Below, in pieces: positions 7,637-20,763 of a stretch of 64,000 nt of DNA (position 1 is its first letter; each line of letters starts with the position of its first letter). The position numbers and the translations under genes were made by a program. Where the stretch lies: assembly GCA_004022145.1 (NCBI GenBank), contig RCNU01000001.1; one strand, 5' to 3'. The notes beneath the pieces were generated by a model, which did no database searches, was not told the origin of the DNA, and was given only the letters and a program-made list of their open reading frames with translations. The stretch comes from Paecilomyces variotii (lineage: Eukaryota).

Positions 7637-9494
<1,858 letters not shown>

Positions 9495-11242: not shown

Positions 11243-14200
11243 TCACTCCTTGCTCTCCGACGCTGATGGCTGCTCGGCATCAGCCATCTCAGTGTCTTCC
11301 TTCTCCTTCGGCTGCGCTTCCTCCGGCTTCTCCGCGCCAGCAGACTCGCCAGCGTCGGGCCCCTGGATCCACGAACGGAAGCGCTGGTTCGATTCGTCCA
11401 CCTCGTCCTTGCTCAGCCCGTGCGCCCAGCTGGGGTTGTTGACAAACTTCTCCATGAACCGGTCCCGACGGCGCTCCTTGACGGCCGCTTCCCCTCGCGC
11501 TTTCTCTTCCGCCGACTCGTGAGTGCGCGCCGGTGGACGCCACCACCAGTCGTAGCTACCGGGCTCGTACAGGATGTGGTAGCTGTTGGCGCAGATGCGA
11601 ATCACAAGGCCATCGTGGTTGACCAGACGACGGTAGTACTGGTTGTATTCCTCGTCCTGCTCCATCTTGGGCGGAAGGTTGCGCTTAAGCAACGGCATAC
11701 GCATCTGAGAGAACGGAACCCCTTCGGTCGGATCGCGCATCGTGTAGGCGGAAACGTAGTACGACCAGCGTGCCTCCTGGCTGAGCTCTTCGTTCTCCAG
11801 CGTGCTGTCTTCGGCCGTCATGAGCTGAATCTTCGCGTGCTGGGTAGCAGGGTCCTATAGGGTTTGCGGTCAGCCATGCGCCCACGGGAAGGATCGGTGA
11901 GAATACTTACGTAGGTGATCCTGTAGATATCGCTATCCTTCACGAGCCTCTCCACCTGCTTGCGGTACTGAATCTCCTGGTTGTGTGTCGTCTCCTCCCG
12001 GTCTCGCTCCTTAAAGAACAGGTTGATGATGTCGACACTCTTATCCTTGGGATCGCTGTTGAAAATCCCACCAGCGAATCGAGCAATACCAGCAAGCATC
12101 TTCTCCAGATTGTACAACTGGTATCCGCTCTTCAGCCAGTATCGGCGCAGAGTCTCCTCCAGGTGAGACACCTCCATGTCTCCCTTGATCACCTCCTCGC
12201 ACATGCGCACGATCTGCTGGTAGAAGTTGGCCTTCGGGTCGCAGTCATACAGTAAATCAGTAGGCAACTTGTCGATCATGCCGAGGTCATGCGCGGCCTT
12301 GGGCAGGAGTGCGCGACGGACATCCTCGTGCGCATCCTTCTCGTGAAGCTTGATGCGTAACAAGCGAGAATAGAGGATCTCGAAGGTGCGGAAGAAGCAA
12401 TAAATGTTGAGGTTGGCATACAGATGATGGACCTTCTTCCCATACGATTCATTAAGAGCGTATTCTCGCTGCTGGTTGAAGTTGCCCTGGCCAGGGTGTT
12501 CCATCCACTTGAGTTCTGCAACGTCGAACGGCTCCGTGGGATCCGGAATGGGGGTCGACGGAATCAGCACGGCATCAGGAGTTCCGTCGCGGCTAACAGA
12601 GGCACTGCCCTCCTTGTCGCCACGGTTAGATCTCTCGGTGCGACGCTCCAGGACGTCACGAAGAAGATCCAACTTCTTCCCGTTGACAGCACGCCTGCCG
12701 CGGATAGTCGAAACGTCTTCGGGAGCCACGCTCTCTTCATCGACTTCTTCCGCCGGAGACGTGTCATTGGAGACCTCGTTCATGTACATGTGGAAAGTGT
12801 CACGATCCATACCATAGAAGATGGGGATGAAGTCCTTGATAAATGCCATCACCCTCTGGGGATCAGACCCGAAGCCAGCAGAGTTGCGATCGATGAAGAT
12901 GAGTAACAAGTGAGTAGCGTCGACAATAACGGCCGGGTCCGTAAAGGCGAACTCGAACTGGTGCTTGGGCACCTGGTAGCCACTCTTGCGGAGGTTCCTG
13001 ATCTCCTCGAACTTTGCCTGGATCTCATGCTGAATGTGCTTGGCCACAAAGAGCTTCTTGTCGCTACCCCTGCTGGCGATCGCCTGGTGATCCAGACTAC
13101 GCCAGTAAGCCTTCTGCGTCTGCTCACGCCAAACTTTGTCCCACTCGCGCTGGCTAGCCTTCCACTCCTCGCACTTCTGTTTGAGGCGGAAGAGGACGAT
13201 AGGTAGAATGTGGCACGGCCTCTCGAACATGTCCTGGATGACTTTCTGTCCCCTCTGGCGATCGTAAATCTTCTTGATGACACGCTGGTAGATTGACTCG
13301 CTCTGTCCACCAAGTCCGGGAGGCAGCTTGAATGCAGCACGCTCCGCTTCCGACATGACTAGCAGTTGCTGGACAATGGGCTCAATGAGTTGGATAGTAC
13401 GGGTGCACGCTTCAATGTGATGATCATAGTCGTGTCTGTCTTCTTCAATCCGATGTAGCGCATCCTCAAACTGGTTCTTACGATGCGCAACGAAGCCAGA
13501 GTCCTCGGATTCCCAGGTCGGATGAGATGCCCACTCATCGTTAAGCACACTGTAGCACAACTGGTCGCGGCCGCTGCAAGGCTTCTGGCGCTCACGCTTG
13601 GGGAGCAGACGGTAACTTGGTCCCAGAGAACGGCAATGAGAGAGGTTGACAACGCCAGAGTCCTGCTTGGGCTTCAAATCTATGACCTTGTCCTCTGGAT
13701 CATCGATGTGCATGAAACGTTTGAACCACGACATGAGTTCTTGGTTGGAGCCGATGAACCCAGCCGCTCTCTTCACAAGAACGTTTCTGTCAATGAGATC
13801 GGTCGAGTATAGGTTGCACAGTTTGAGGAATTCGCTGAAGGTCTGCTTGTTTCCAATGAATTTCTTGACACGATCAAAGAAAGCGAACTCGTCATGGTTG
13901 GGCGTCAGTGAGAACGTAGGTGGAATTGGCTCTGGAAGAGCGGGAACAAGAGTTGGTGATACTGCAGGGGCCTCAATCTGCGTTGGCTTTGTATGATGGA
14001 CCTTGGCACGCTTGAAGAAAGGACATTAGCAAAGCGCATGGGACCTAAAACAACAAAAGACAAAATGAATTGAAAGAATGGCGCCGGTCAATTGATGGTA
14101 ACGTTCCACGTGGTGTTCAGGGGGCTGTTCGTCGCCCGCAACGAACAGCCCCTTTGCCGGCCTTCGACGAAGAGGCTGCTCATTCGGAATCGTCCTCATC

Positions 14201-17200
14201 CTCGGATGCGTCCAGGATGTTCAATGGCAGAGGGGTTGGTGGCCCCGTCTTCATGAGCCACTCCATGATGGCACGATTGACTGGGGTGACAGGGGCCACC
14301 TCCCTCAGGACAAACATCCCGATCACTGCGACATCGGGGTCGAGATTGTAGATTCTTGGCCGCTTGTTTGGCCCCTCTCCCTCCCCTCCCTCGCCTCCCT
14401 GGCTCTCTGGCTCCGGAGATGGAGTCTCTGGTCCCCTCTTCCTCTTCCTGGACGGTTCGGGCGCAGGCTCAGGCTGGGGGCTGGGGCTTGGCTCCTCTGG
14501 GAGGAGGAACCTCACCCTCTTGCCAGTGTCCCTCCGCGGAACCTGTAACTGTTCCGCGAGAGGAGGGACCACCACTTCGACCGGCGAAGCGGTGTTGCTT
14601 GCTGGCGCGACCCCCGCCTTCTGCCTGGCCGTCATCGACCGAGTCGTTCTCCGAGGCAAAGACGAACCCCCTGAGGCCGTGCCCTGGTTGGCAGCAGGCA
14701 CCTCAGATGATGCCGTCTTTGGGGATTTCTTGCCAACAGTCCTCTTCGTGGCTGTCTTGGGGGTCGTTGCCCCCTTTGGCACCGCCTTTTTGGCGGGCGC
14801 AGGCTTTCTGGGAGCCATTCTGTTGGAGAAGTCGGAGTTGGCGATGGTTCAGATCCTTGGCCAGCAAGGATCTCACGAGGGGGAGGCGGAGAAAGAAAAT
14901 GAACTCGCCGCGTTCGAGATCTCTGAAGATCTCACCTTGCCAGCAAGGTGGATATGTTGGATTGCGAGTTTTTGAAGATAGTGAAGAAAAAGGTCAAGAC
15001 GGTTGGAGGAAGTATCGCAGCGTGGAACGTATGTTGTAGCAGAGAATATGTCGCGCTGCAGGTTGAGTTCTGAAGTGGGATGTCGTATTTCCCGATGTAT
15101 GACTCGATGCGAGAGTAACACGCCATTGAGGCCATTCATGAATAACACCACCATTGACCGGCTCCATTCGACGTAGAACAAAGAGAACAATAATTCACTT
15201 ACCTTATTGACATTTCCGACCTGAAGTCCCTGCGCCCGAGCTTGAGCATCTGTCATCCGTGCAGCGTCCACTGTCGAAGGCCCCGGGACTGAACCCAGAG
15301 TGCCAGGGGCACCGGGCCCGCCTCTACGCTTCTTACTGTCCTTTGCAGAGTCTTTGACGTTGAATTGGCCCAGTGGTGGCATCTTTACATCGCGGCTAGG
15401 CGTCTGAGATTGTGCCAAAACACCAGCAGTGGAATATCCCGGTTCTCCACGGACATTGCTCACAGGAGCAGCATCTTCCGCTGCCTGGCGGGCAGCCTGT
15501 GCTTGCTGCTTGGCGTGTGCTGCAGATTCTGGGAGGAACTGCTTGAAGTCCTCGAGAAGATCGGGAGCAGTATTGAACAGCTGCGTTACCTGAGCATAAA
15601 CGTCTTGAATGGGTTTTGACTCGCGCTGATAAGTCTGCAGAATCTCAAGAAATTGCTTGTAGATCTCGGGGGCGCTAGAAAAGCGATTCTAACAAAAAAT
15701 CACGGTTAGCCCTCAATCTACAATCCTATGTCAACGTGTCTCGCGTCCGCTAACCTTAATCTTGTTAACATAGCTGATCGCATGGTTGAATTCAACAGGA
15801 CCACGCTTGTTGAGATCGGTCTGAGAGCCTTGGAGCATCCCAGATCCGATGCCAGCCAAACTGCTCATAGGCTGAGTGATGCCAGGACCCTGGGCTGCCC
15901 CGGGGGAAGCCTGCATCATGGATGGACGCCCAGCGCCACCGGCGGCCGCTGACACGGCACTCTGGAGCTGCGAAACCCCACGCTCCTGCTGCTGGTGGGC
16001 AAGGGCCGCGGCAGAGGCCTGTTGCTCCTGCTGGCTCTGATATTCGTAATGCGCGTCTTGAGGCTGGTTTTGGCCTTGCTGCCCGTAGATTCCGGGTCCC
16101 ATCATACGAGCACCAGGAGAGTATGAAGGGGGAATTCCGCCCTGCTGTGGCTGGTGCTGAGCCTGTTGCCAGCCAGGACGAGATTGATCATAGTAATCAG
16201 GACGACCAGGATGAAGTCCACCCGAAGGACCCAACTCACCAGCGGACTCCATGGAAGGACGAGGGCGCGTCATTGACAGAGTATTCGTTCCCGACGGCGT
16301 TGTTACGCGAATCGCATCGGGGTTGTCCTCCGTCCCACACTCGATCCGGTAACCCGGGGGGAGGAAGGTATTGAATCCTTGGATCAAAGCGGGATGGCCG
16401 TTGAAAAGCGTGGAAACTCGCTGGATAACTCCTGGGGTATCGATACTACAAGAGTCAGGCAATATTCGCACAGACAGGTGGGGAGAGTACTCACGCTTGG
16501 CTCTTGAAGTCCTTCATTATGTCGAGGAATCTGTTATACACATCGGGCTGGTCGACAAAGCGCACCTTAACCTGGTCAAGGTAGCTCAGCGCATCCTACG
16601 AATATATCAGTAAAAGCTTAGTCTCATTTTCACCCAAGTTTTTCGGTGCTGCATATAGTGCTCTCCCATCACGAACGCCGCGAAGAGAGAATATGAGGGG
16701 CACCATATGAAGAGGTCCGAACTCACATTGAGAATGGGCTGCTGGCCCTGCGCTAAAGCTGCAACGCCTCCGGGAATCTGAGGAGCTGGGCCGTTATAAC
16801 CAAGCATCGGCTGCCCCGGCGGTCCTTGAGGAGGATGCTGCATGTATGGTCTAGGCGTTCCTTCGCCATGCTGTATCTGCGGACCGTACATACCACCCGG
16901 GCCACCAGAAGACTGCATCGCGCTCTGCGGCGGGTTTGGCGGCGGGTTTGCACCGAGGTTCGAGAGGAGTCCATTCGGTCCGTGAATCGAGTTGGGAACT
17001 TTCGAGGCGACGGGCTGGTGAATCGGGATCGAACCCGTGTGGCTCTGGACAGGATGGTGCTGCTGCTCCCGCTGTTGGCGTTCCATCTGCTGTATCTGTT
17101 GTTCCCTCTCTCGTTCGCGCTGCTCCCGTTCCCGGTGTACGATCTCCTCCTGCCGCTGTCTCTCGATCATCTCGCGCTCCCTGGAGTCTCTTTCGCGCTC

Positions 17201-17737
17201 TCGATTCAGCGGCTGCGGTGAAGGATGCTGCATCGCCTGACCGATTCCAGGGAGTGAATGGCCAGCACTATGAGAAGGGCCTTGCGGATGTTGTCCAAAC
17301 GGAGGCGGTTGGTGCGGACCAGGGCCTTGGCTTAATTCCGCCAAACCGGGCAACGAATGGCCAGAAGGCTGGCTTACAGGGTGGTAAGGACCTAGTACCA
17401 AATTTACAAGTCAGCCAGAATCCCGAGACTCTATTTGCGCTCCTAGAAATGGAGATGGTCGATTTCTTACCAGCTGGAGGCGGTAGAACGGGCCCCGCAG
17501 GTTGTGAAGATGGTCCTTGCTGAGGCGGGTTTTGACTGTGCACAGTGAAAACGGAAAGTCAGCCAGAGGCCTTTTTCATAGGTATGGACAGATGACTCTA
17601 ATGCGCAAAGCCAATGTGAGGGAGAGCACATACCCAAACGACCCCAGGGGCCGTGGCTGTTGGTTTAACTGGTCCATCCCCGGGTGCGAAGGCGGCCCCC
17701 CGGCAGAGTGCCAGTTATCATTACCAGAAGGATTCAT
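11243..17737 (-). CDS. SIN3: Sin3 co-repressor / HDAC scaffold; exons 17737-17634, 17535-17471, 17391-16727, 16595-16495, 16445-15755, 15688-15203, 14010-11911, 11854-11243
   Basis: PAH1 ([24 protein letters not shown]), PAH2 ([14 protein letters not shown]), PAH3 ([12 protein letters not shown]), HID ([28 protein letters not shown]) and Sin3 C-terminal region. Every intron restores the frame. Confidence 0.95.
14180..14818 (-). CDS. Nested ORF inside Sin3 intron 6: basic, Pro-rich, probably nuclear 212-aa protein
   Basis: ATG-initiated uninterrupted ORF with coding-like GC-rich codons. K/A/P/T-rich N-terminus, KRVRF, RKRKR..KRPR and an acidic tail. CT-rich leader upstream. Confidence 0.65.
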   Translation of the reverse strand: MAPRKPAPAKKAVPKGATTPKTATKRTVGKKSPKTASSEVPAANQGTASGGSSLPRRTTRSMTARQKAGVAPASNTASPVEVVVPPLAEQLQVPRRDTGKRVRFLLPEEPSPSPQPEPAPEPSRKRKRGPETPSPEPESQGGEGGEGEGPNKRPRIYNLDPDVAVIGMFVLREVAPVTPVNRAIMEWLMKTGPPTPLPLNILDASEDEDDSE

Positions 17738-18876
17738 TATCAACGCATGAACTTGATCTCAAGACACACAAAGATCTAGCCTTGCGTTGTCTCAACAGCG
17801 CAAAAAGGAAAAGGAAGGGGTCGTAAGGATCGGGCCGAGCTGGCCTTGCAATAAGCTCTGCTCTTGAATGTTCTCTCGCTGGATCTGGTCTTTGGGTTCC
17901 CAAAGGATCTATAACAGGAACATCGCTGCAGGAATCTAGAAAAGTGAGGGATAAGACATATAACCAGTATTCCCTGCCAGACCCCGTGCTGAGTAGGAGA
18001 GGGCAGTTAGTAATAGATGAATCAAAGTGAAAGAGAAGGAGGATTCTCGGAGCAAGCAACCATTAGTGACGATGGTTTGCGCGCGACCGATCACGGGTCG
18101 GCCCTGGAGGGCGGTGGTCAGGACTTCATCCTACTAAGCCTTATCCGGAAAAGTGCCTGTTGGTCGGAGTCATGATTTTCCGGTCATAATATGCCGCCCA
18201 TCGTTGATTGGCTCGGTCGGCATCTCTGGGGAAATACTCGGCGCCGACAAAAGTAGAGTAGAGAAGCAATAATCCAAGGAATAACTAACTATACACTTAT
18301 TGTCCGCTTAGCAGAAAGTATATTCTAAAAGGAGCTGCATAATCTCTAATGATCGAACACATGCAATGTATTTCTCTGCTCCAAACCGTGATGTGGAACC
18401 GGGTTTCGTAGCCTGTTTTCTATGTTCCCCACCATCGCAATGATTTCGGCGTCCAAGCATCTGGATACATCCAAGAGTTATAAGCTAGGCGGTGTTACTA
18501 GAAGCGCAGTACACTCTGGGGAGATGGGAGACGCGTTGAGGGGTGGACTTGGGAAATGAAAGTCCAGCGTCTCCCCGGCTCCAGAGATAACGCCTTGACA
18601 AATATCTGAAGACCACGCAAAGGAAAACGGCGGGGAGGATGACAAAGGGGCAATGGACCGAAAAAAATAGTTGAGGGAAAGGCAAGAGAAAGGTATGGAC
18701 CGAATTCCAGGTTTATCTGAACTGGCAACTTGGATTGAATCTGTCCCTGTTGCTCTACCATTTTATCTTCGTATCAGGCCTTATATCCATCATATCGACC
18801 TTCAAGGTCGCTCATCGCCCCACGTCCCGTCAATAACTGACATCAATCCATCACATCATTGCCAGAAAGTGACTGC

Positions 18877-20763
18877 TTAGAGTGCAGAGAAGACGAAGAG
18901 CTAGAAGACGATTAGTTTCACAGCAATTGAACCAAGCCATGCTGAGTGTGCCAGGAAGTGGGAAACTTACATTGTTGGTCGCGGCGATTGCAATACTATC
19001 CTCAAACGGATGCCAGCTCATATGTAGGATCTTCTTGTTGAAATCGATCTGGTCCGCGTCGGTCTCCTTCCTCATGCGTGAGCCAGGTCCCGCAGGGCTC
19101 CCAGCTCTCGAGCCACCCTTCTTGCCATTCTTGTTGATCGGAGTTGGCACTCCGACCTTCTTCGCCTTGAAAGCGGACTTATCCGCCTGCAATACCACCT
19201 CCGTGTCTTTATTAGGATCCGTCGGGTAAATCATGAAGTTGTTGTTGTAGCTTCCGGTCATGACGTTTTCGGCATCGCCCGAGAAGACGACCTCGAATTT
19301 ATCAAAGATGCTATCATTCTCGTATGTGTCGCATAGACGGGGTCGTAGATGTTCGTGGATAGGAATTGTCTTGATTGGTTGTCTCTCCATATTGACATCC
19401 CAGATCTTCACGGTCAGGTAATCTCTCGAAAGGATGTAGCGACCATCATGAGAGAATCGAACGTCAGAAATGGAGGAAATGATTTCGGAAAAGAAAGAAC
19501 GGGAGGAGGCATCTTCTTCTTGTTCGAACACTGTAGTAATTAAATATCAGTTGTGCCCACCACCAAAAAGCCTGCTTGGGTTTATGACTTACGTTTCTGG
19601 TGTTGGTCGCACAATGCACTCTGCCTCATGTCTGCGAGCTTGATCGTTCCCTTGGAACTCGCGTACATGAACCAGTTACAGCTGGTCGGGTGGAATTCTG
19701 CAGCCGTAATCACCTCTGTCAGCTCCTCCATATTAGCTGGTTTGATATCGACAATGTTGAAGCTCTGGTCCTGAATATTCAGATTCCATAGGTTGATTCG
19801 TAGATCGTCACTGCTGATGAATGTCTCGCCATCGCTGTTCACGGATATGCTGTTGATGTGGTAGGCGTGGGCATTCGCATAGGTCCTTCGGGGAACGGCT
19901 GCAACGACGGTGTCGTGGTGCGTCATTCGGGGGAGTTTCAACGCGGAGGGGTCCTTGAACGACACACGCGGTGTGCGAGGAGCACCACCTCCTCCCACAG
20001 CTCCGCCAGGAGTCAGTTCTGACGAGAGGTTGTTCTCCGCGACCACCTTCAGCGACTTGTCGAACACTTTCCACAGCTTTATCGTCTTGTCGTTGGTTGA
20101 GAGGAGGAAGTGGGAAGCGTTTTGTCGTCTACACCATTTTATCTTGTTGATCTTTTCTTCGATCTCTAACGATTTTAGATAGTCGAATTCCGGCTCGTGC
20201 GACTGGAACTCTGTGTGGAACTTGTATTCGCATGTCTTTTTCTGTGGGGGTGATCAGAACAATCCTGTCCACAAAGACGATCTGGGGGTCGCTACCGTTT
20301 CGTTTCGCTCAAACAGCACCACTCTTCCACCCTTATCTCCTGTGGCTAGGTAATTACCGGTGTGGTCGAACTCGACGGTTGAGATAATATCGGCTAGGAT
20401 GCGGCAGCACACATTAGTTTGCGCGGTCCAGAACAGAAGGGCAGGTAGAAATAAGTTCCAAGAACGTACCCTCTGTGATATCTTCGACATCTCCCTTATC
20501 GCCAAAGCATCTATCATCCTGGATCAGCAACGGATCGATCTTCCAATCATATTCAACGCAACGAGGGGAAGTGACGAGGCCATAGGCATCACTCTCCCCC
20601 ACCATCCAGCATCTGCATGTACTTCCAGAGATTTCTTGCCGATGTAGTCCATTTGAAGGTATCTGGCCCCGTCTCGCAGAAGAAAGCAACGTAGAAGTGT
20701 TTTTTGTCGGGAGACTTACTGCGTAAACTTCCAGGTGGGAGTACCTGGATCTCCGTCTACCAT
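18877..20763 (-). CDS. CDC55: PP2A regulatory subunit B55 (Cdc55/PabA), multi-exon
   Basis: [81 protein letters not shown]; ends LFVFSAL-stop. Confidence 0.96.

Follow-up and report, generated by a model that had tools for sequence, protein, structure and literature searches.

A probable protein-coding gene within the long sixth intron of Sin3 in Paecilomyces variotii

The sixth intron of the Sin3 gene of the mould Paecilomyces variotii, studied here in a 64,000-nucleotide (nt) window of contig RCNU01000001.1 (assembly GCA_004022145.1; all positions are those of the window), is spliced as a single unit of 1192 nt and contains, on the same strand, an open reading frame (ORF) of 212 codons that is, on balance, probably an independently expressed coding gene. 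Its product is most likely a basic and mostly disordered protein of ~23 kDa that occurs only in the Paecilomyces variotii group, as judged from structure modelling together with homolog searches. One strand would thus carry two transcription units, Sin3 itself and an intronless gene lodged in intron 6. The ORF was first pointed out in a preliminary description, prepared by a model from the nucleotide letters, which portrayed its product as histone-tail-like with a docking motif for protein phosphatase 1 (PP1), supposed that it might be co-regulated or compete with full-length Sin3, a supposition for which nothing in the present data speaks, and expected gene finders to miss it or to merge it wrongly with its host.

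Results

Sin3 and the splicing of its sixth intron

The Sin3 coding region lies on the minus strand (11246-17737) and comprises eight exons encoding 1607 amino acids (aa). The gene model was obtained by mapping the public model P0008 onto the window and refining each junction to canonical ends; its spliced translation is identical to the Sin3 part of P0008. All seven introns are of the GT..AG type, with lengths of 98, 79, 131, 49, 66, 1192 and 56 nt, so that intron 6 is about ten times the length of the other six (49-131 nt), just as the preliminary description had it. The boundaries proposed there also read exactly so, with VGNVNK running to 15203, GTAAGT at 15202, TTCAAG to 14011 and RAKVHH from 14010. 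The two exons that flank the intron hold the PAH, Sin3_corepress (histone deacetylase interaction) and Sin3a_C domains found by Pfam (Table 1).

Contigs from four RNA-labelled public runs (X1, X6, X10 and X12) were aligned to positions 13400-16000. The joint 14010/15203, which skips 1192 nt and is bordered by CT..AC on the plus strand, hence by GT..AG on the minus strand, occurs in X6, X10 and X12, which come from three studies (P3, P4 and P5). The same three runs join the 66-nt control intron (15689-15754), and these two are the only joints across all four runs. The junction that had been predicted is therefore seen in three of the four, and the 1.19-kilobase (kb) interval is a genuine spliced intron of Sin3. 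Unspliced pre-mRNA exists as well: two low-depth contigs (record 6 of X10 and record 12 of X12) extend over the 5' splice site of intron 6. In unspliced Sin3 the frame of exon 6 stays open through the first 109 codons of intron sequence, and failure to splice intron 6 would yield a Sin3 restricted to PAH1 and PAH2 with 109 extra codons.

Run X1 is a metatranscriptome, in whose library DNA carry-over is likely. Its record 2 (392 nt) matches just 31 nt of a pyrimidine-rich tract (14970-15000), with unrelated sequence on either side, and probably represents another locus or organism having the same short low-complexity stretch.

RNA from the intron interior

Three further contigs lie inside the intron, namely X6 record 15 (14083-14538, depth 23.2), X6 record 16 (14517-14916, depth 6.1) and the 171-nt X12 record 11 (14399-14569, depth 15.4). 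Each is collinear with the genome, without a single differing letter and without joints. In X6, the Sin3 contig (5,355 nt, depth 35.1) joins across intron 6, and no contig of that run falls on the first 286 nt of the intron (14917-15202) or on its last 72 nt (14011-14082). Contigs from the intron interior that stop short of both intron ends suit a transcript separate from Sin3 and no shorter than 834 nt, and do not fit an evenly retained intron. The putative transcript would have a leader of ~98 nt devoid of ATG and a trailer of ~97 nt. Both the ORF (14180-14818) and the RNA contigs (14083-14916) are located wholly inside one spliced intron, which is the arrangement expected of a nested gene.

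Coding character of the ORF

The ORF is present as originally described, with the motifs that had been quoted for it. Its start codon stands in the context ACAGAATGG. It is in phase with Sin3 exon 6, from which two stops separate it (14873-14875 and 14849-14851). The codon score of the ORF frame is +0.099 per codon, compared with -0.05 to -0.42 in the other five frames and 0.267 for Sin3; among the six frames, it alone is both stop-free and positive in codon score. Two open stretches were noticed on the opposite strand, 14290-15039 (+; 249 codons) and 14352-14975 (+; 207 codons). Both have a negative codon score and at least one stop inside the ORF span, and they look like by-products of high guanine-cytosine (GC) content.

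Conservation was assessed in an alignment of three lineages. Invariant columns (119 of 214) form strong clusters: shuffling produced an uninterrupted run as long as the observed maximum of 17 columns in 59 of 20,000 cases, and a window as good as the best one (30 of 34 columns invariant) in 18 of 20,000. The conserved blocks are KRVRF, SRKRKR and a C-terminal module of two predicted helices, with the strongest conservation at residues 166-197. In a neutral simulation at matching divergence, the ORF together with its ATG survived in 7.5-10.6% of 4000 trials.

Variation within the species was surveyed in 12 P. variotii variants, consisting of 10 NCBI models and 2 Logan ORFs. Eighteen of the 212 ORF residues vary, compared with 21 of 1607 in Sin3, and none of the 18 falls within residues 159-210. 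When P0015 is left aside, the varying residues number 11 of 212 in the ORF, 2 of 45 in a spurious bridge exon of the public gene models (see below) and 12 of 1607 in Sin3.

Homologs and lineage restriction

The ORF is intact in two further lineages at 74-79% identity. One relative has a complete ORF of 201 aa (P0002; 74% identical, 147/199), and all four internal gaps in its alignment comprise whole codons; P. lecythidis has a copy embedded in its Sin3 model (79% identical, 153/194). Sin3 of the window and of P. lecythidis share 95.1% identity over 1501 residues, from which it follows that the small protein evolves several-fold faster than Sin3. An exhaustive HMMER search of 1,835,955,588 representatives (E<=0.001) gave two matches, both of them clusters of the Paecilomyces group. 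Protein searches arranged by size returned two matches near the ORF's length, two longer and none shorter; 33 candidates among shorter proteins were inspected for broken or shortened homologs and none matched. The window contains no paralog of the ORF, an ESM Atlas search with the whole protein and with residues 150-212 gave no usable match, and a scan of Joint Genome Institute (JGI) metagenomes with a three-sequence profile produced 486 pattern matches of which none was confirmed. In the searches run, therefore, no homolog appeared beyond the narrow lineage, as is expected of an orphan gene. A preprint (10.1101/2023.05.28.542624) cautions that many supposed orphan or de novo genes have hidden homologs.

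Derivation of the ORF from an ancestral linker exon of Sin3 was considered and rejected, the exhaustive search, which included fungal Sin3 proteins, having given no similarity. In a more distant relative (P0019) the frame upstream of the RAKVHH acceptor is open for 62 codons and is unlike intron 6 (compared over 13000-16500 of the window), which implies that the linker or intron region between PAH2 and PAH3 differs among relatives.

The predicted protein

The protein changes in composition along its length: a very basic first third gives way to a proline-rich middle, where KRVRF and SRKRKR lie, and after it come an acidic Gly/Glu tract, the helical module and an acidic tail. Residues 1-70 include 16 Lys or Arg and a single Asp or Glu, feature TPK and SPK, and account for 9 of the 18 strain-variable residues. 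The Gly/Glu tract shifts in length by whole codons among strains and species, with 3 residues fewer in P0015 and P0004, and 10 fewer in P0002. AlphaFold2, run on the three-sequence alignment, returned a mean predicted local distance difference test (pLDDT) score of 53 and only two helices (161-173 and 179-191), both at low confidence. Pfam found no family in the ORF protein at E<=1, and a sequence profile search of the PDB likewise gave no match at E<=1. The characterization as histone-tail-like thus stands for the composition, which is rich in Lys, Pro, Ala and Thr with TPK and SPK sites, and falls for any histone or linker-histone domain.

The RVxF pattern is a docking motif for PP1. In the ORF protein, KRVRF is invariant in 3 of 3 lineages and in 12 of 12 P. 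variotii variants; its surroundings, basic on the N-terminal side and acidic on the C-terminal side, are predicted to lack secondary structure (pLDDT 50-59). The motif conforms to the class consensus [KR][KR][VI]x[FW] in a segment predicted to be disordered. The strict RVxF pattern arose in 483 of 100,000 composition-preserving shuffles (0.48%). Of the basic clusters, SRKRKR is likely a nuclear localisation signal, and because there are two such clusters the protein may well be nuclear. Partners of Sin3 that carry a Sin3-interaction domain (SID) present a short amphipathic helix to a PAH domain. A complex prediction that combined ORF residues 148-212 with the three PAH domains (P0003 residues 272-348, 524-600 and 962-1034) scored 0.01 against a mark of 0.34 and, having been made without controls, counts neither way.

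An inverted repeat near both intron ends

A search of 13900-15300 (1401 nt) found just two inverted repeats, I1 and I2. The arms of I1, which had escaped the preliminary description and is newly noticed here, are complementary at 16 of 17 positions and lie 1060 nt apart, one near each end of the intron. In the minimum free energy (MFE) and centroid folds the I1 helix closes the entire intron interior and is extended by further pairs beyond the 17 nt; in the pre-mRNA context its pair probabilities are 0.97-1.0 at 15 of the 17 positions, 0.49 at the pair that ends it and 0 at the mismatched position. Dinucleotide shuffles equalled the duplex energy of the two intron ends in 2 of 1000 cases. A long-segment RNAduplex test, comparing the intron's first 120 nt with 140-nt tiles, was discarded as support, internal tiles having given -75.6 to -68.1 and the true 3' end -69.3; the case for the helix rests instead on the exact repeat and on the pair probabilities. 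In X12, the variant T15163G converts the sole mismatch of I1 into a pair.

The branch-site consensus is CTRAY, and the motif occurs in the other six Sin3 introns at a distance (10-24 nt) comparable to that of the putative branch site of intron 6. With the branch point assumed at CTAAT (14025-14029), the parts of the intron outside the helix measure 33 and 49 nt, hence 82 nt in all. Zipper stems are described in PMC12350175 by a stem of at least 6 base pairs (bp), a linker of 42-85 nt and limits of at least 10 nt and at least 20 nt, and I1, having 16 of 17 bp and linkers of 33 + 49 nt, falls within that definition. We propose from these folds that the helix may loop out the nested gene so that Sin3 intron 6 behaves as an intron of normal size.

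The second repeat, I2, is predicted to form a strong hairpin of ~13-15 bp about 40 nt before the RNA contig end and could be a 3'-end or stability element. Rfam reported nothing above threshold in 13900-15300, the lone match being at chance level (mir-4900 at I2, 21.5 bits against a gathering value of 60, E=0.17).

Public gene models

Eleven public full-length Sin3 models were examined, ten from P. variotii (nine of 1831 aa, one of 1847 aa) and one from P. lecythidis (1700 aa), and every one of them fuses the ORF into Sin3. The mis-merging foreseen for gene finders has thus occurred throughout. On the window, the fused model needs a bridge exon (15069-14935) and the introns 15202-15070, 14934-14822 and 14281-14011; no contig of the four runs contains any of these joints, and the X6 contigs pass unspliced through two of the supposed introns. 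The bridge exon is without relatives and is constructed differently in P0015. The fused models also clip the C-terminal end of the ORF, its best-conserved part, and do so variously, after residue 179, 194 or 200. The model P0017 of P. variotii strain No. 5 ('SIN3 homolog B', 916 aa) starts within intron 6 and lacks PAH1 and PAH2, which is a second type of annotation error due to this intron. As a stand-alone protein the ORF is found in the protein collection only among ORFs from run assemblies, with the exact ORF of the window on 11 contigs.

The features of the locus are collected in Table 1. Sin3 is flanked downstream by an acetyl-CoA hydrolase/transferase gene (7780-9244, minus strand) and upstream by a WD40-repeat gene (18854-20253, minus strand).

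Table 1. Positions of Sin3 exons, the nested ORF and predicted elements in and around intron 6
Feature	Position	Strand	Basis
Sin3 exon 6 (PAH2; ends ...VGNVNK)	15203..15688	-	Pfam PAH (PF02671) E=1.7e-17; RNA joints on both sides
Sin3 intron 6, 1192 nt, GTAAGT...TTCAAG	14011..15202	-	RNA joint 14010/15203
Sin3 exon 7 (PAH3, Sin3_corepress, Sin3a_C; starts RAKVHH)	11911..14010	-	Pfam PF02671 1e-12, PF08295 6.6e-41, PF16879 2.9e-56
Nested ORF, 212 codons plus TGA (14182-14180), ATG at 14818	14180..14818	-	Best codon score of six frames; homologs
RNA contig span in intron (minimum nested transcript)	14083..14916	- (by ORF assignment)	X6 records 15 and 16; X12 record 11
Putative promoter of nested gene, pyrimidine-rich tract at ~14965-14990	14917..15152	-	Position between zipper arm and upstream end of X6 record 16
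N-terminal Lys/Pro/Ala/Thr-rich basic region, residues 1-70	14609..14818	-	Predicted disordered
KRVRF, RVxF-type short linear motif, residues 100-104	14507..14521	-	Pattern match
SRKRKR basic cluster, residues 123-128	14435..14452	-	Invariant in 3/3 lineages
Acidic Gly/Glu tract, residues ~133-149	14400-14440	-	Variable length
KRPR basic cluster, residues 152-155	14354..14365	-	K152, R153 and R155 invariant
Conserved C-terminal module, residues 159-197	14228..14344	-	Longest invariant run (17 columns); best window (30 of 34 columns); predicted helices 161-173 and 179-191
Predicted hairpin in ORF 3' untranslated region, 28-59 nt past stop	14121..14152	-	I2, 15-nt arms, 93% complementary; MFE fold
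5' arm of predicted zipper helix, 33 nt past 5' splice site	15153..15169	-	I1; MFE and centroid folds
3' arm of predicted zipper helix, 49 nt before branch A	14076..14092	-	I1; folds and pair probabilities
Putative branch site CTAAT, branch A at 14026, 15 nt from 3' splice site	14025..14029	-	Motif position

Discussion

Several observations weigh against an independently expressed gene, or against parts of the scenario built on it. The RNA evidence consists of assembled contigs and not of reads, hence comes without strand, true ends or expression levels; in X1 a contig of 5,614 nt (depth 56) spans the whole stretch with neither intron removed, and in X10 the Sin3 contig joins across intron 6 while the ORF is covered by no contig. 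The training set behind the codon score is noisy and the ORF's score is weak next to that of Sin3. Outside the conserved blocks, the protein varies nearly as much as translated non-coding intron does. The homologs were drawn from predicted proteins, which biases the comparison toward intact ORFs. As to function, the RVxF match is a five-residue motif chosen after the fact and is not diagnostic alone; as to the helix, the X12 variant C15169G breaks the terminal pair of I1, the partner arm being uncovered in that run.

One alternative is that the intronic RNA is non-coding. It would then stem from partly degraded excised intron, from pre-mRNA fragments or from a lineage-specific long non-coding RNA, and the ORF would be a side effect of high GC content, as yet undisrupted in closely related species. 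The ORF region has 60-67% GC and its plus-strand frames are also long (249 and 207 codons); in the N-terminal two-thirds, amino acids vary nearly as much as in translated non-coding intron; under neutrality the ORF survives at a rate of 7.5-21.6% per lineage; and the weak codon score, the restriction of relatives to the Paecilomyces group and the pre-mRNA fragments over the 5' splice site (X10 record 6, X12 record 12) all agree with such a view. It accounts poorly, however, for the X6 contigs (14083-14916), which omit the intron ends at a depth comparable to that of Sin3, for the whole-codon nature of all four gaps in P0002, and for a conservation that clusters in blocks sensible as peptide motifs. 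Nor would it lead one to expect zero strain variation in residues 159-210, a frame that alone of six is stop-free with a positive codon score, or the lack of any broken fragment among shorter proteins. We consider a non-coding RNA unlikely, though not negligibly so.

The ORF might alternatively belong to Sin3 itself, as an alternative exon cassette that places ~224 residues between PAH2 and PAH3. All ten listed full-length NCBI models of P. variotii and that of P. lecythidis are so built, and the ORF is in phase with exon 6. The three introns which this structure requires nevertheless match no joint in the four runs, X6 records 16 and 15 run unspliced across 14822-14916 and 14083-14281, the bridge exon has no relatives and is built differently in P0015, and the models truncate the conserved end of the ORF inconsistently (residue 179, 194 or 200). 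Since contigs lose rare isoforms, a minor cassette isoform could still exist, but as an account of the ORF the cassette seems to us very improbable. Only marginally better placed is the idea that the intron interior (14076-15169) goes back to an inserted mobile or foreign element bounded by 17-nt terminal inverted repeats, the ORF being its cargo or a decayed gene; it concerns origin and is compatible with a present function. The 17-nt repeats by both intron ends, 1060 nt apart, the step in GC content from 45-49% at the intron ends to 60-67% in the interior, the lack of relatives outside the group, and the unrelatedness to intron 6 of P0019 residues 1-60, upstream of the same acceptor, are in its favor. 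Examined as a DNA transposon with terminal inverted repeats, however, the interior offers the inverted repeat alone: there is no target-site duplication beside the arms, no transposase or other Pfam domain, and no second copy in the window or in the protein collections. The helix, moreover, extends past the 17 nt, which suits an RNA structure more than terminal repeats.

If the ORF is an independently expressed gene, as we favor, the locus could work as follows. The helix, anchored 33 nt past the 5' splice site and 49 nt ahead of the branch A, would loop out the intron interior, and the spliceosome would then meet a linker of ~82 nt, an ordinary intron size. The nested gene would be transcribed from a promoter of its own within the first ~290 nt of the intron, giving a transcript that covers at least 14916-14083. 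The protein would act through its short conserved elements, that is, KRVRF, the two-helix C-terminal module and the acidic tail. Given the invariance of KRVRF and its rarity in shuffles, PP1 docking is the best single functional guess, and the product might be pictured, as a guess from its sequence, as an adaptor that docks PP1 via KRVRF and delivers it to whatever nuclear partner the C-terminal module binds. A more elaborate scenario, which we think very unlikely, would have a recent gene birth in the Sin3 intron give rise to a nuclear adaptor that links PP1, via KRVRF, with Sin3/Rpd3 or chromatin, via the C-terminal helices, and whose output is coupled to the host through the zipper helix. 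The 3' arm of the zipper overlaps the presumed 3' end of the nested transcript, and the helix would decide between two outcomes, Sin3 splicing on the one hand and read-through or intronic 3'-end formation, with a PAH1-PAH2-only Sin3 as product, on the other. Host and guest would in that case constitute a regulatory switch on a single strand.

The immediate consequence is one of annotation. The full-length public Sin3 models examined from P. variotii and P. lecythidis all carry a spurious insert of ~224 residues, and comparative or functional work on this central co-repressor would begin from the wrong protein; the small gene, for its part, is absent from the gene catalogues of what are food-spoilage and fermentation moulds. 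In a fungus with introns of ~50-130 nt, it is unusual for one of them to hold a lineage-restricted coding gene on the same strand, and the locus suggests itself as a tractable case of a young gene for which population data from many sequenced strains are ready.

Regarding known systems, the arrangement is most likely that of an orphan gene which shares its host's strand and sits in a spliceosomal intron of a fungus, the intron ends being bridged by a predicted helix, and by sequence its product belongs to no known protein family. Nested intronic genes are known mainly from animals. One such example is OMP within an intron of CAPN5 (PMC6549253), and the present case would resemble it as a complete gene, probably with its own expression, wholly in one host intron. 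It differs in that the host is a fungal gene whose introns otherwise measure 49-131 nt, and in that the guest shares the host's strand, takes up the greater part of a 1.2-kb intron and lacks relatives beyond the species group. For fungi, the authors of CodingQuarry describe nested genes as rare (PMC4363200); our literature search on nested genes in fungal introns found only general statements of that rarity, and one pairing 'Paecilomyces variotii' with 'Sin3' found no paper on the locus. With intron-hosted small nucleolar RNA and other RNA genes, the locus has in common a functional unit inside the intron of a housekeeping gene, the difference being that the unit is here an ORF, apparently on its own transcript and not processed from the intron, with no Rfam family at threshold. 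The resemblance to RVxF-type PP1-interacting proteins consists of one motif only, an invariant KRVRF in a segment predicted to be disordered, and does not extend to sequence relationship with any known PP1 regulator (no Pfam family and no PDB match). Orphan and de novo genes are similar in being confined to a narrow clade, short, disordered, fast-evolving and intronless; a de novo gene in the strict sense has a non-coding ancestry, with orthologous non-coding sequence in outgroups as its proof, and the present ORF is described here as lineage-restricted.

As to splicing, the predicted arrangement resembles the zipper-stem introns of yeast, RPS17B and RPL7B among them (PMC12350175; PMC12311795). 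There, pairing of a stretch shortly after the 5' splice site with another ahead of the branch point reduces the effective spacing of the two, and the linker of 82 nt predicted here lies within the published range of 42-85 nt. In yeast the RNA enclosed by the stem is non-coding and a few hundred nt long, whereas the stem predicted in Sin3 of a filamentous fungus would enclose ~1060 nt and with it a whole gene, including its 3'-end signals. Should the helix prove functional, the zipper-stem principle would extend beyond yeast, both to filamentous fungi as represented by this mould and to an intron with an entire gene to skip.

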